This document shows positions 19,389 through 24,173 of a stretch of 36,379 nucleotides of DNA, piece after piece. The position numbers and the translations under genes are program-made. The notes beneath the pieces are model-generated. The model did not search any database and was not told the origin of the DNA. It was given only the letters and a program-made list of their open reading frames with translations. The first letter of the stretch is position 1. Every line of letters starts with the position of its first letter. Source of the stretch: a virus (lineage: Duplodnaviria; Heunggongvirae; Uroviricota; Caudoviricetes); the IMG/VR virus record IMGVR_UViG_2531839666_000016; one strand, given 5' to 3'.

Positions 19389-19739
19389 TTACTTCAACCG
19401 TTCACGGGCCGTCTTCGCCTTATGACACGGCCAGCACAGGCTCTGCAGATTGCTGTCGGCATCAGTGCCGCCATGCGCTTTAGGGATGATGTGGTCAACG
19501 GTTTTCGCCTCACGTACCACACCACCACGCAGACATAACTGACACAGTCCTTTGTCACGCTTGAGCACACGTTCACGGATAACATCCCATTTCGAACCAT
19601 AACCGCGCTGGTGTCTGGACTGGCCCGGCTTGTATTGCTTCCAGCCTTCACTTTTGTGGCTTTCGCAATAGCCTGACGGGTCAGTTGTGGTATGGCGGCA
19701 GCCGCGAACACGGCAGGCTTTTGGGGTTCGTGGTGGCAT
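19389..19739 (-). CDS. HNH endonuclease (terminase-associated)
   Basis: 116 aa with Cys-rich zinc-finger-like pairs and the HNH-type motif DHIIPKAHGG...N...H; typical position upstream of terS. Confidence 0.85.
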   Translation of the reverse strand: MPPRTPKACRVRGCRHTTTDPSGYCESHKSEGWKQYKPGQSRHQRGYGSKWDVIRERVLKRDKGLCQLCLRGGVVREAKTVDHIIPKAHGGTDADSNLQSLCWPCHKAKTARERLK

Positions 19740-19770: not shown

Positions 19771-19794
19771 AAAAAAGCCTCGCATCAGCGAGGC
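19771..19794 (-). terminator. Intrinsic terminator (minus strand)
   Basis: Hairpin GCCTCGC-loop-GCGAGGC followed on the minus strand by a T run. Confidence 0.5.
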
Positions 19795-19850
19795 TCAGTC
19801 TATCCCATGAAGGGAAATATAGAGGCGATTCCGTCCATTGGACAAGCAAT

Positions 19851-19875
19851 AAAAAACCGCCCGAAGGCGGTTTTT
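19851..19875 (-). terminator. Bidirectional intrinsic terminator just after the moron cassette stop
   Basis: A6-CCGCC-CGAA-GGCGG-T5; lies 4 nt downstream of the stop of ORF 19879-20457. Confidence 0.6.
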
Positions 19876-19878
19876 ACA

Positions 19879-20457
19879 TCATGCATATGCATAATTTTCT
19901 TCTGCAACAAGCTTTGCAACCTGTCTATCAGGAAGAAGTAAAACAGCCTGCTCTAGGCTTTGTTTTTCAGTGAGTAACTCTAAAAATTGGTTGGCTGTTT
20001 GCAGAACTTTTGCCACAGACCAAATTGTTAACATAATTGGAAGAGAATATATAATCAACATTAAACTATTGAAAAGCAAAACCTTATCCAAGATTTTAGC
20101 TGATTCTCGTATCGTTGCTATTAACTTCCCGTTATCACATTTCTGAAAAAGTTCAACCTCACGTTTGATCCTTGCCTGTATCTCTGGATTAGCACTGAGC
20201 CGCCTTTGAGCCCTCACTCTGTTGGGCAAAGTCATAAGGTGCAAACGATTGATTGCGTTGTTTAAGGCCTCATGTACAAGCTCAGCCGCTTGTACATCAT
20301 CTTTACTTTCATTCGAAATTATTTGATTTCTAACTATATCTCTCAGTTCAAAAAGCTTATTGCGGTAATGCAAACGAACAGATGGAAGTAGTATCCTTTC
20401 GTAAATAAAATGCACTGCTGCCATACATAACAGCACATAAAAAAGCACTGTCAGCAT
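19879..20457 (-). CDS. Moron-encoded membrane protein (N-terminal and C-proximal TM helices, central coiled region), function unknown
   Basis: 192-aa ORF in markedly AT-rich DNA; hydrophobic segments LTVLFYVLLCMAAVHFI and LLFNSLMLIIYSLPIMLTIWSV; terminator immediately downstream. Confidence 0.55.
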   Translation of the reverse strand: MLTVLFYVLLCMAAVHFIYERILLPSVRLHYRNKLFELRDIVRNQIISNESKDDVQAAELVHEALNNAINRLHLMTLPNRVRAQRRLSANPEIQARIKREVELFQKCDNGKLIATIRESAKILDKVLLFNSLMLIIYSLPIMLTIWSVAKVLQTANQFLELLTEKQSLEQAVLLLPDRQVAKLVAEENYAYA

Positions 20458-20473
20458 AGTTTCTCCTTAGGGA

Positions 20474-20860
20474 TTAATTGTCGCTTGATCCCAGTGGCAC
20501 TTGTGTTCTCGCCTGTTGATGCAGAGTTTTTTCTGCTCCAATACGACGAGCTTCCACGCTAAAACATCTGCGCATCATACTTGCATGCCAAGACCACGCT
20601 AGGATAACAATGACACAAAGTCCATACCCAATTAGAGAGTGATCTGCTAAGCCGTCAATAATTCGATGCGCTAGTATTCCTAATTCCTCTGATGGCATGC
20701 GCCAAGCTGCAATCATCAGTACAATACTTATAGTTATAGGCACTAGTTGACCGGTTGTCATGGCTTTGAGCATCACATCTCGCCATGCCTGAGCAAAACT
20801 TACTGAATGTTGCCCTTTACCTGATTTTCCACCTTTGCCCTTTGACTTACCCATTATCAT
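20474..20860 (-). CDS. Moron-encoded small membrane protein (Lys/Gly-rich N-terminus, two TM helices), function unknown
   Basis: 128-aa ORF 17 nt upstream of 19879-20457 in the same AT-rich block; TM segments LVPITISIVLMIAAW and LIGYGLCVIVILAWSW. Confidence 0.5.
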   Translation of the reverse strand: MIMGKSKGKGGKSGKGQHSVSFAQAWRDVMLKAMTTGQLVPITISIVLMIAAWRMPSEELGILAHRIIDGLADHSLIGYGLCVIVILAWSWHASMMRRCFSVEARRIGAEKTLHQQARTQVPLGSSDN

Positions 20861-21612
20861 CCAGCCGCGGTTATGATTTTAGGTAAATTCTACAGCTATA
20901 AATAACAAAATAAAACATCCACTTACTACATCTCTTCTTCCATTAGCCATATTTCTCACTTGCAAATCAAGCTTTTTTTGCACAACAAGGCATTATTCTC
21001 CTCAACTTTCTATATGTTGTGTCCCAACAGCTAACAAACAACTATCACCCACATCACATATGTAGGATGCTTAACTTTTTTAAAAGTTCATTATCACTTA
21101 ACTAAGAACCATATTTTCAGACAATTATCTACAGCTGCCATCCATACTTTGCTGTATGCCTGTATATTTTTCTTTGACTACTTATCGAGCTCATCCAAGT
21201 AATCAACAGCCGCACAGATAGGTCTCACCCGGTCCCGCCCTGTGTCAATTAACTCAACCTTGCATGTCCTACTTGTGCGCAGTTCGTGATCAACGCCACT
21301 ATCAGACATATGATTAACAGTTTGCTATACCTTGTTGGTATCTTTCGTTGCTTATATCCAGCGCTCTGCTATAGCCTAGATGTTGAGTCCTCCTATTCGT
21401 AACGCTTCTGATCAGCGTTCATTTGTACTTCGCTAGTACCGTATGAATATCCTAGACCGAATACCCTAGCGGTAGCAGTGCTAAACGCAGCAGCTAGCAA
21501 GATAATCATTTCGATACCCATTGTGCTCCCACATCAGAGTAGATCTCAGCAGATTGAACAGAATGTGCTAGGAATAACAATTCGAAAAAAGCTATCGTTC
21601 AATCCGCCCCTG

Positions 21613-22050
21613 TTAATCCAGGCATTGAGTTCTGATGTATTCCTGTAGGTAATTAACCTGTGCAGTTATCTTGTCGATTCCACTTCGGAGGCGGTAATAA
21701 TTGAGTTCAGCATCTGCTGTAAGTCTTGGGCTTTCTCCATCGCCCATGCTGCTGGCTCCGGTCGTTGACTTTGCACAGGTGGCGGCGACTTGCAGCCGCT
21801 TACGCCCAGCAGAAACATCATCACGGAGACTTTCGATAGTCGCGTTAGCATCAGCAAGCTCCTTTGTATATCTGGCATCGAGTTCTGCTACATCATGTTG
21901 ACGCTTCTGCATGTCAGCGATTGTGGATGTGGCCTTATCGCGCTGCTCTTTGTAGGTAATGGCGTTATCACGGTAATGATTAACCGCCCATGACAGGCAG
22001 ACGATGATGCAGATAACCAGAGCGGAGATAATCGCGGTTACTCTGCTCAT
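21613..22050 (-). CDS. Rz: Rz i-spanin
   Basis: 145 aa; N-terminal sequence [34 protein letters not shown] matches lambda Rz as recalled; follows endolysin. Confidence 0.8.
21666..21878 (-). CDS. Rz1: Rz1 o-spanin (lipoprotein embedded in Rz in alternative frame); likely start at MMFLL (about 21821)
   Basis: Embedded ORF with lipobox LLGVSGC followed by a Pro-rich segment, the hallmark of Rz1. Confidence 0.6.
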
Positions 22051-22523
22051 ACCTCAATCTCTCTGACCATTCCGCCAGCTTCTTTGAATTTTGCAATCAG
22101 GTTGTCAGCCTTATGCTCGAACTGACCATAACCAGCCCCCGGCAGTGAAGCCCAGATATTGCTGCAACGGTCGATTGCCTGACGGATATCACCGCGATCA
22201 ATCATCGGTAAAGCGCCACGTTCTTTAATCTGCTGCAATGCCACTGCGTCCTGGCTTTTGGGGGAGAAGTCTTTCAGGCCAAGCTGCTTACGGTAAGCAT
22301 CCCACCAGCGTGAAAGAAGCTGATAACGTCCGGCTGCTGTTGATTTGAGTTTGGGGTTTAGCGTGACAAGCTTGCGAGGGTGATCGGAGTAATCAGTGAA
22401 GAGTTCTCCACCGACAATAACATCATAACCGTGGTTACGTGTCGGTTGTCGCCCGTTATCCGTTCCTTCTGACCATGCCACCATATCGAGGAAAGCTTTA
22501 CGCTGAGGATTAAGATTTTGCAT
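22047..22523 (-). CDS. R: Endolysin, lambda R-like lytic transglycosylase
   Basis: 158 aa, near-identical over most of its length to lambda R as recalled (…[19 protein letters not shown]…). Confidence 0.9.
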
Positions 22524-22827
22524 TTTTCACCCCTGTCAGTCGTTCCCAGAAGTACGTCAGTGCAACCGACCCCATCGCACCGCTAATCCCCGCTGTCGCG
22601 AGAATCATGTAAATACTGAATCCACTTTCGATGCTAATCAGGCCACCAATAACACCGGTGAATCCTGATACCACTATTTGAGCCAGAGCATTTATCCAAC
22701 TCCACGTTGCTTTACTCTGCTTCACATCTATCAGGTAGCGGACCAGACCGCCCCAACCTGCAATGATCAGCAAAACGAGCCAGAACGCTCCGGCAAGGCT
22801 CTCTTTTTCGTGCATATGAATAGCCAA
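22510..22827 (-). CDS. Holin (possible dual-start, TTG codon 1 and ATG codon 5)
   Basis: 105 aa with three hydrophobic helices and charged C-terminus; immediately upstream of endolysin. Confidence 0.7.
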   Translation of the reverse strand: MAIHMHEKESLAGAFWLVLLIIAGWGGLVRYLIDVKQSKATWSWINALAQIVVSGFTGVIGGLISIESGFSIYMILATAGISGAMGSVALTYFWERLTGVKNAKS

Positions 22828-23038
22828 TGTTTCGCCGCCGACAAAAGGCCGGGACGTTAAATGTCAGAATGCAGGCTCACGGGTTAATTTAACGACAAAG
22901 CACGGAGTTGATGCTCCCCGCAAGCCTTGAATAAAAAAGCCAGCATATGGCTGACAACAGAGGGTTAAGCAATGTCAATTCATCAGGCGAAGGCAACAAA
23001 AAGCCCCAGCAAATACCAGGGCTAGACAGATATGAATA

Positions 23039-23218
23039 CTACTGTTCTTCTATTTTTTTACTGGAAATCAATCCACTGGTCATTTCATAACCGTTTGTGT
23101 GGCCACAGTAAGGGCAAATAATTGGCTCTTTATCCTTTCCTCCTGGATAGCCTCCACTGTGCTCCCAATAAATAAACTCTTTATTGCAACTTTCATTACT
23201 ACATCTTGTATTGCTCAT
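23039..23218 (-). CDS. Small Cys-rich (zinc-ribbon-like) protein, 59 aa, first ORF of the late transcript
   Basis: Hand-translated: MSNTRCSNESCNKEFIYWEHSGGYPGGKDKEPIICPYCGHTNGYEMTSGLISSKKIEEQ; GGGAG Shine-Dalgarno 7 nt upstream of ATG; below the 60-aa cutoff of the ORF track. Confidence 0.35.
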   Translation of the reverse strand: MSNTRCSNESCNKEFIYWEHSGGYPGGKDKEPIICPYCGHTNGYEMTSGLISSKKIEEQ

Positions 23219-23288
23219 TGCATCACTCCCTCAGTAAGTAAGGAAATAAATACATAGCATAACCAAATCATTATTCGAAATTTGAGCA

Positions 23289-23314
23289 CAAAAAAACCCG
23301 CTCGATGGCGGGTT
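23289..23314 (-). terminator. Candidate tR' (terminator of short pR' leader transcript)
   Basis: On minus strand: AACCCGC-loop-GCGGGTT followed by T7; about 100 nt downstream of Q stop. Confidence 0.5.
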
Positions 23315-23360
23315 CAAGAAGATTATCAACGGTAGACACACAAAGCCCATCGTTAGGATA

Positions 23361-23389
23361 ATCCTAACCATATTTTTTGAAAAATGCAA
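23361..23389 (-). promoter_or_regulatory. Candidate late promoter pR' with overlapping palindrome (possible Q-utilisation site)
   Basis: Minus strand TTGCAT, 17-nt spacer, TAGGAT; the 17-bp palindrome GTTAGGAT-A-ATCCTAAC (23352-23368) overlaps the -10. Confidence 0.35.
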
Positions 23390-23420
23390 GAATCATGTCG
23401 CCATCTTCGGCGAAAATCAT

Positions 23421-24173
23421 TTATCTTGTCACTCTCCTCAATTGTGTCTCAGCATATGCTTCTTCCTGCCAGCACTTTGTAACCAGTTTATCAATGACAT
23501 CTGCATATCCTTTGTACCACTGATAATCCGTCAGGTCTGGTACCAGCTTCTGGACATGATGCCGCGCCAGTGTGGTTGGTAAACGGCTAAACCGGTTTCC
23601 ATTGCAACGCCCACAAATCTTATAAACAGGCGTGCCATGAAGCCGGGTCCTTTTTTCATCCAGGACAATACCTTTACCCTTACACCCTCTGCACGCTGTG
23701 CTGACTTCTCCCTTACCATGACAATGCTGACATAGTTCCTTCACCCACTCTTCCTTGATAACAGATTCCCCGCTTCTGGAGTGTTTCACCACCTCGCGCA
23801 ATACATTATGAAATCCAGTACCAGCACAATGCTCACAGCGAGCCTTACTTGCCGCAGACCTGGAATAATCAGCAAAGGCAAAATTCACAAGGTAAGGGAT
23901 GATCTGTAACCGGATTTCTTCACTCAATTTGTTCAATGTCGGGTTATCCAGTGCCATCGCGTAATTGAGCAGACCTTCAATCGCAAACTGAGGATCCTGA
24001 ACGCCAACTTTTGCCAGGAATAAGGTAAACCCAAGCGGTGCTTTCGACTGCACCATCCCCTGTGCAGCCATCACATCCGTAATCGTTAAACCACCTGAGC
24101 CTGTCGCCGGTGCGTCATCACTCAATTTTGGAGATTTTGGGGAGTAATATTTTGGTAAGGCTTCAAGGTTCAT
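23421..24173 (-). CDS. Q: Late-gene antiterminator Q (zinc-finger type)
   Basis: 250 aa with Cys/His clusters (CEHCAGTG, CQHCHGKG, CRGCKGKG, CGRCNG); located immediately upstream of pR'-lysis cassette. Confidence 0.75.
   Translation of the reverse strand: MNLEALPKYYSPKSPKLSDDAPATGSGGLTITDVMAAQGMVQSKAPLGFTLFLAKVGVQDPQFAIEGLLNYAMALDNPTLNKLSEEIRLQIIPYLVNFAFADYSRSAASKARCEHCAGTGFHNVLREVVKHSRSGESVIKEEWVKELCQHCHGKGEVSTACRGCKGKGIVLDEKRTRLHGTPVYKICGRCNGNRFSRLPTTLARHHVQKLVPDLTDYQWYKGYADVIDKLVTKCWQEEAYAETQLRRVTR

Follow-up and report, generated by a model that had tools for sequence, protein, structure and literature searches.

In the accessory hotspot of the P2-like phage AC1, the gene for a 2TM protein (126 aa) is followed by those for a 1TM protein (185 aa), a TIR protein (315 aa; PF13676, PDLC03016) and a 305-aa protein of unknown function. 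An AC1 lysogen is protected against phages lambda and LF82_P8, and a plasmid with the three genes 2TM, 1TM, and TIR (pFD240) confers protection from lambda, LF82_P8, and P2 (Rousset et al. 2022, PMC9122126). It has been proposed that the AC1 TIR protein activates the membrane proteins by way of a nucleotide signal, and the P2 hotspots were reported to contain largely anti-phage systems (Rousset et al., PMC9122126, also the source of the name 1TM for the second protein). No single-gene dissection of the AC1 locus was found in the text or supplements of PMC9122126, and the TIR protein by itself might account for all of the protection. Literature searches turned up no mention of the system beyond Rousset 2022 and one survey, and no paper that treats the three-gene system as a stack of independent modules.

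The window analyzed here, i.e., the whole stretch of 36,379 nucleotides in the IMG/VR virus record IMGVR_UViG_2531839666_000016 (Caudoviricetes), encodes relatives of the first two of these proteins, 62% (2TM) and 53% (1TM) identical to those of AC1, which was the only phage record in the phage collection with a relative of the pair. The region is 100% identical to a prophage of Escherichia coli FHI_NMBU_10, in which an IS3-family element splits the HNH gene beside the cassette (locus L002, 1429-3040), the prophage being otherwise identical. The features of the region are as follows.

19775..19796, minus strand: second terminator, in the phage backbone upstream of the HNH gene (fold; cassette-free prophages)
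19852..19875, both strands: intrinsic terminator of the cassette (fold; travels with the cassette)
19879..20457, minus strand: ORF-B, the 1TM gene, 192 aa (ORF, PADLOC, AC1 homology)
20474..20854, minus strand: ORF-A, the 2TM gene, 126 aa (ORF, PADLOC, AC1 homology)
20855..21020, minus strand: AT-rich leader (∼84% DNA identity with a Klebsiella aerogenes prophage)
21115..21521, minus strand: pseudogenes of a second spanin pair (tblastn matches to mEp390 gp51/gp52)

Every gene in the region around the cassette is on the minus strand. On its upstream side lie the genes for the antiterminator (24173..23421), the holin (22827..22510), the GH24 lysozyme (22523..22047), and Rz (22050..21613, with an embedded Rz1); on its downstream side, the HNH gene (19739..19389) is followed by those for a P27-type TerS and TerL. 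This annotation agrees with an earlier sequence-only reading of the window, which had placed the cassette between the lysis genes and the HNH/terminase genes and had described it as two co-directional ORFs of 128 and 192 aa in an AT-rich block of a GC-richer late operon, with a bidirectional terminator just after the second stop codon and another one before the HNH gene. Both ORFs are indeed present, co-oriented and separated by 16 nt. The first can start at an ATG at position 20860 (20860..20474, 128 aa), but the ATG at 20854 (MGKSK..., 126 aa) is the likelier start; the RefSeq model WP_000520336.1 and all homologues begin there.

The difference in base composition noted in that reading could be measured both as overall GC content and at third codon positions. 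The block 19850-21200 has a GC fraction of 0.35 to 0.44, compared to 0.52 to 0.60 downstream and ∼0.50 upstream of it; the GC fraction of the cassette is 0.38 to 0.45, and both ORFs have a GC3 of 0.33, compared to 0.56, 0.64, and 0.66 in the HNH, TerS, and TerL genes, respectively, and 0.47 to 0.51 in the lysis genes.

Both terminators were likewise found where they had been described. The cassette terminator (19875..19852; AAAAACCGCC-TTCG-GGCGGTTTTT followed by a T-tract) begins 3 nt past the stop codon of ORF-B and has a folding energy of -17 kcal/mol (z -4.1); on the opposite strand, the values are -15 kcal/mol and -4.8. Since its hairpin is flanked by an A-tract on one side and a T-tract on the other, it can act bidirectionally. 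The second terminator (19796..19775) folds at -21.3 kcal/mol (z -6.05), and none of 200 shuffled sequences reached the stability of any one of the three structures. The first terminator belongs to the cassette, given that DNA homology with foreign cassettes runs through the hairpin and ends within 19846-19851: in P2-like phages (loci L007 and L033) it extends from 20883, upstream of the start codon, to 19848, and in a lambdoid prophage of K. aerogenes (L024) it extends from 21020 to 19846 at ∼84% identity. The second terminator belongs to the backbone, as cassette-free prophages, such as that of E. coli TUM13936, share the segment 19700-19816.

The AT-rich leader accompanies the cassette in lambdoid contexts. 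It contains candidate promoter elements, namely TTGATT (20970-20965) and GCTAAT (20947-20942) spaced by 17 nt, as well as TAGAAT (20892-20887), and the blocks resembling promoter elements are conserved in the alignment. A consensus promoter scan called no minus-strand promoter in the leader, and these elements are regarded as candidates for a promoter of the cassette's own. On the plus strand, antisense within the 1TM gene, positions 20028-20055 match the sigma-70 consensus at 11 of 12 positions (TTAACA, 16 nt, TATAAT); in AT-rich DNA, such a match may be fortuitous. No Rfam family matched the segment 19300-23500 above its gathering score.

Between Rz and ORF-A lie 750 nt without a long ORF. 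Most of this gap is accounted for by the segment 21115..21521, which in tblastn comparisons shows 50 to 61% amino acid identity to the mEp390 proteins gp51 and gp52 in two frames, interrupted by a frameshift and in-frame stop codons. This decayed spanin pair, located between the functional Rz/Rz1 genes and the leader of the cassette, looks like a recombination scar; the remainder of the gap is the AT-rich leader. A decayed TIR gene had been considered for the same stretch and was rejected on these grounds. Another low-GC islet of the window (23000-23400, GC fraction 0.37) lies in the interval between the antiterminator and holin genes and is probably another moron; it contains a hydrophobic 52-aa ORF and a 59-aa ORF (23218..23039; RefSeq WP_023154804, hypothetical) whose product has a Cys-rich motif resembling a zinc ribbon.

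The HMM search of the two proteins returned one full-length PADLOC match each, to the membrane components of the anti-phage locus: ORF-A matched the 2TM-TIR model PDLC02978 (E 5.8e-57, model positions 2-124 of 124) and ORF-B matched the 1TM-TIR model PDLC02977 (E 8.9e-79, positions 1-185 of 186), and no other PADLOC model was matched by either. There were no matches in Pfam or NCBIfam, and the only PHROG matches of the pair, phrog_33772 and phrog_24550, are both of unknown function. Accordingly, the earlier statement that neither protein resembles structural, lysis, or packaging families stands with respect to Pfam, NCBIfam, and PHROGs, and the identity of the two proteins is close to certain.

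Hydropathy analysis gave two TM-grade segments in each protein, as the sequence-only reading had predicted. In the 2TM protein, they span residues ∼37-53 and ∼73-92 and are separated by a ∼19-aa loop with 1 basic and 4 acidic residues. They are preceded by a Lys/Gly-rich N-terminal tail and an amphipathic helix with the conserved R25-D26 pair and are followed by a basic, conserved C-terminal helix that is predicted to be cytoplasmic. This charge distribution suggests an N-in/C-in topology with both ends in the cytoplasm. Residues conserved among 83 sequences of the 2TM protein include G35, Q36, P54, G76, W87, H90, R95, E101, R104, and Q113. The 1TM protein has hydrophobic segments at residues ∼2-24 and ∼125-150. 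The first is an N-terminal TM helix that bears H16, F17, and Y19 and leads into a juxtamembrane helix, in which P25 is followed by a ladder of charged residues (R28, R32, R39, D40, and R43); a predicted helical cytoplasmic domain of ∼100 aa (19 basic and 13 acidic residues) separates it from the second hydrophobic helix, which contains N130 and P140 and is followed by an acidic, poorly conserved tail. All the named residues of the 1TM protein, together with I22 and N66, are nearly invariant. Its AlphaFold2 model is all helical (pLDDT 82.8, pTM 0.63); a Foldseek search of PDB and BFVD with this model gave no match below an E value of 0.3, profile searches of PDB sequences gave no match, and none of these searches yielded a relative, by fold or by sequence, whose function is known.

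No TIR gene accompanies the pair in the window. A tblastn search of the whole 36-kb window with the AC1 TIR protein found nothing at E≤10, and the terminator that follows the 1TM stop codon by 3 nt is itself followed by the HNH gene. When the AC1 locus was used in sensitive DNA searches of the six E. coli genomes that carry the cassette, the cassette alone was found, with no homologue of the TIR gene.

The same absence characterizes nearly all relatives of the pair. Word-indexed searches identified 44 clusters of 1TM and 26 clusters of 2TM proteins, from Enterobacterales only, and a scan of genome contigs found a single locus. When a profile was run in full against 1.84 billion representative proteins, clustered at 50% identity, it retrieved 976 clusters of the 1TM protein (E≤1e-3; 730 of them at E≤1e-10), with lengths of ∼170-195 aa and end-to-end matches throughout; each of ten sampled family members matched PDLC02977 and none matched Pfam. 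From IMG/VR, metagenomes, and assemblies, 124 loci were collected, representing 75 lineages at 80% identity, and every ORF in them was scanned with HMMs for 2TM, 1TM, and TIR. A 2TM gene was found directly upstream of the 1TM gene and on the same strand in 62 of 67 evaluable lineages, most frequently with a 4-nt overlap. In contrast, a TIR homologue anywhere in the locus was present in just 1 of the 43 lineages with at least 1 kb of downstream sequence, namely AC1 itself, with no weaker match in the others even at E≤10. The pair thus occurs independently of TIR.

This distribution bears on the possibility that the pair is an orphaned effector, a killing arm that needs TIR or another host sensor and is inert or decaying when alone. 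Such a reading would follow the proposal of Rousset et al. (PMC9122126) that the TIR signal activates the membrane proteins, and the existing functional data are for the three genes jointly. However, 42 of the 43 evaluable lineages are without TIR, no homologue of the AC1 TIR gene is present in the host genomes, and both reading frames are intact in every lineage examined. Between the window and the TIR-less copy of K. aerogenes, the dN/dS ratio is 0.085 for 2TM and 0.083 for 1TM; as judged from these ratios, the pair is under purifying selection without TIR. The occurrence of the closest TIR relatives without the pair and the indel boundaries, both described below, also speak against an orphaned effector, which is improbable. 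The same ratios and the PADLOC homology rule out chance ORFs.

The TIR protein, in turn, behaves as a separate module. More than 1,500 proteins are related to that of AC1, and the closest ones, 47 to 74% identical, are encoded by solo genes without the pair (L037/L038 4001-4960, L039/L040 4001-4936, and L041/L042 4001-4864). The gene for the 74%-identical protein makes up all the cargo of a P2-like hotspot in Klebsiella; other solo TIR genes are found in a Serratia chromosome, between genes for LacI- and LysR-type regulators, and in an Enterobacteriaceae chromosome, beside a prophage remnant. Compared to the P2-like locus L013, which contains the pair alone, AC1 has an additional 2.9 kb that comprise TIR and gp01, whereas in comparison with the Klebsiella phage locus L038 the additional 1.7 kb are the pair, both differences being clean indels with the boundaries expected of separate modules. 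P2-like hotspots hold the pair, the TIR gene, or the pair with TIR and gp01, and the three-gene form, detected 14 times among 5,426 complete E. coli genomes at 99.6 to 100% identity, represents one lineage. These comparisons suggest that what is catalogued as one three-gene system consists of independent modules stacked side by side. The fourth hotspot gene of AC1, gp01 (L001 6499-7416, 305 aa), adjoins TIR and has no Pfam or PADLOC match; neither the Klebsiella hotspot with TIR alone nor the pair-only hotspot L013 contains it. A stronger version of the modular reading, in which the pair would be a self-sufficient and widespread two-gene system that confers phage resistance alone and has a fold unseen in solved structures, AC1 being two stacked systems, has somewhat less than even chances.

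The cassette shows the insertion polymorphism of mobile cargo. It is carried by 6 of the 427 matching E. coli genomes and by 6 of the 5,426 complete ones. In the collinear E. coli prophage of TUM13936, Rz is followed by the HNH gene with a 207-nt ORF in place of the cassette, and phage SfI has an unrelated 124-aa ORF at the same Rz-HNH site. Together with its terminator, the cassette recurs in unrelated backbones, namely, the gpA-portal hotspot of P2-like phages and the lambdoid prophage of K. aerogenes, where it occupies the same spanin-to-HNH slot. The pair alone is found between gpA and the portal gene in P2-like phages of E. coli, Proteus, Serratia, and Cronobacter. Other lambdoid-type positions include the lysis cassette of a Plesiomonas shigelloides prophage, where the pair lies between an M15 endolysin and a DUF2514 spanin (L035 3542-6342), the interval between Q and the holins (L019), and a site after Q (L131). 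The sequence-only reading had considered the cassette a moron, and this is borne out by its insertion polymorphism, deviant composition, own terminator, and recurrence in unrelated backbones, with the promoter still only a candidate; moron status is close to certain. The block from ∼21020 to 19846 on the minus strand is best read as a horizontally acquired moron that consists of a leader, two membrane-protein genes, and its own terminator and that is inserted between the lysis genes and the HNH-terminase genes of an SfI/HK97-like E. coli prophage.

The location of the pair in lambdoid phages is invariably the Q-lysis-terminase zone, be it after Rz (in the window and in K. aerogenes), between the endolysin and the spanin (in Plesiomonas), or between Q and the holins (in L019). 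The pair might, in principle, be a lysis accessory that is expressed from the late operon and tunes holin timing or spanin function. This is very improbable, however, as the pair of P2-like phages occupies the accessory hotspot between gpA and the portal gene, a long way from any lysis gene, chromosomal loci likewise have no lysis genes as neighbors, many relatives are found among housekeeping genes, and closely related prophages do without the pair; nor did Pfam, NCBIfam, or the functionally annotated PHROGs offer a match to any holin, spanin, or lysis family.

The neighborhoods of the distant family members are heterogeneous and include genes for IlvD, IlvA, FliD, Kup, AhpC, UvrD, and an Mrr-type nuclease, as well as IS transposases, phage Q, antirepressors, and an S24 repressor; the neighbors of environmental relatives are mostly housekeeping or unrecognized genes. 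All-against-all BLASTP, Pfam, and PADLOC comparisons revealed no recurrent third gene beside the distant relatives; the only repeated neighbors were P2 backbone genes and one IS transposase in five loci. In the metagenomic loci L043, L071, L078, L091, and L114, an IS-type transposase gene (HTH_38/DDE) is located downstream of the pair and convergent with it, a hint that insertion sequences mobilize the pair as well. In a sample of 10 large neighbors, one gave PADLOC matches, all of them weak and to helicase-type models (mostly GajB), so that no enrichment of defense genes near the pair was seen in this small sample. That result and the existence of 976 clusters, some adjoining ilvD, ilvA, fliD, kup, ahpC, and uvrD in metagenomic contigs, would fit a membrane module with no part in defense, such as an addiction (toxin-antitoxin-like) element or a stress or transport accessory, carried by phages for some other benefit to the host. 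Against this stand the repeated capture of the pair in the P2 hotspot, whose contents are largely anti-phage systems (PMC9122126), and its recurrence in other prophage accessory slots, which leave the non-defense reading with as low a probability as the orphaned effector.

The sequence-only reading had considered superinfection exclusion or abortive infection plausible, and the full-length homology of both proteins to the membrane components of the AC1 anti-phage locus supports this indirectly. The pair probably acts against phages, and the chances are about even that 2TM and 1TM form an autonomous module of the inner membrane, with a probable anti-phage role, that the prophage carries as a moron. 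The tight coupling of the two genes and the conserved polar residues in the membrane helices fit a heteromeric membrane complex with a gated function, the most likely form of the module; the hydropathy profiles, the positive-inside charge pattern, and the conserved polar residues in or beside the TM helices are consistent with such an inner-membrane complex, which would have nearly all of its soluble mass in the cytoplasm. The complex would be made in the lysogen and stay quiescent until infection by a heterologous phage triggers it, whereupon the inner membrane would be permeabilized or depolarized and the infection aborted. Because the structural model of the 2TM protein is of low confidence (pLDDT 59.7), this mechanism is drawn from topology and analogy, and infection-triggered permeabilization is favored over a block of entry only tentatively.

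Superinfection exclusion at entry, in which the complex would block the passage of phage DNA across the inner membrane and the cell would survive, ranks a close second among the mechanisms. HK97 gp15 and T4 Imm are known to stop incoming phage DNA at the inner membrane. Small inner-membrane proteins encoded in a prophage moron slot with its own terminator would suit such a role, as would the action of the AC1 locus on the related phage P2 (PMC9122126). However, the predicted periplasmic exposure is small, being limited to the ∼19-aa loop and the poorly conserved tail; the family occurs on contigs of 29 to 67% GC, often with no phage genes nearby, which is unusual for phage-specific exclusion proteins; and neither protein had a Pfam match above noise to SieB or other exclusion families. 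Exclusion at entry is thus considered unlikely.

If the pair works alone, as the modular reading has it, a catalogued defense system has been wrongly delimited, and the pair would be a new compact, sensor-less membrane module for defense or exclusion that is traded between prophage types. As far as is known, detection tools require all three genes, so a TIR-less locus would go uncalled; should the pair work alone, tools that demand TIR would overlook almost every instance of a large family of membrane proteins that has no name.

Among the known systems, the cassette is closest to Rst_2TM_1TM_TIR (PDLC02978, PDLC02977, and PDLC03016), with which it shares gene order and orientation and the status of accessory cargo of a temperate phage. 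The window contains the 2TM gene and the downstream, co-oriented 1TM gene but not TIR; having two of the three components, the cassette is not assigned to this system and is instead described as its TIR-less variant. It also differs from AC1 in the type of host phage and in the insertion site, a lambdoid late region rather than the P2 gpA-cos hotspot, and in its 1TM protein, a 192-aa subtype with a longer C-terminal tail. Like the classical lambdoid morons (lambda bor and lom, HK97 gp15), the cassette is a late-operon insert with deviant composition and its own terminator that is absent from collinear relatives, but it is a two-gene operon, has no sequence relation to them, and has only a candidate promoter. 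The membrane effectors of signaling systems, namely the 2TM/4TM effectors of CBASS, PycTM of Pycsar, and the 2TM protein of retron Ec48, as well as lambda RexB, are thought to kill or arrest the infected cell. By analogy, the 2TM and 1TM proteins would be comparable to them as small helical inner-membrane proteins. No sequence or fold similarity to those effectors was detected, and neither in the window nor at the related loci is the pair linked to a cyclase, a TIR protein, a reverse transcriptase, or a sensor like RexA.
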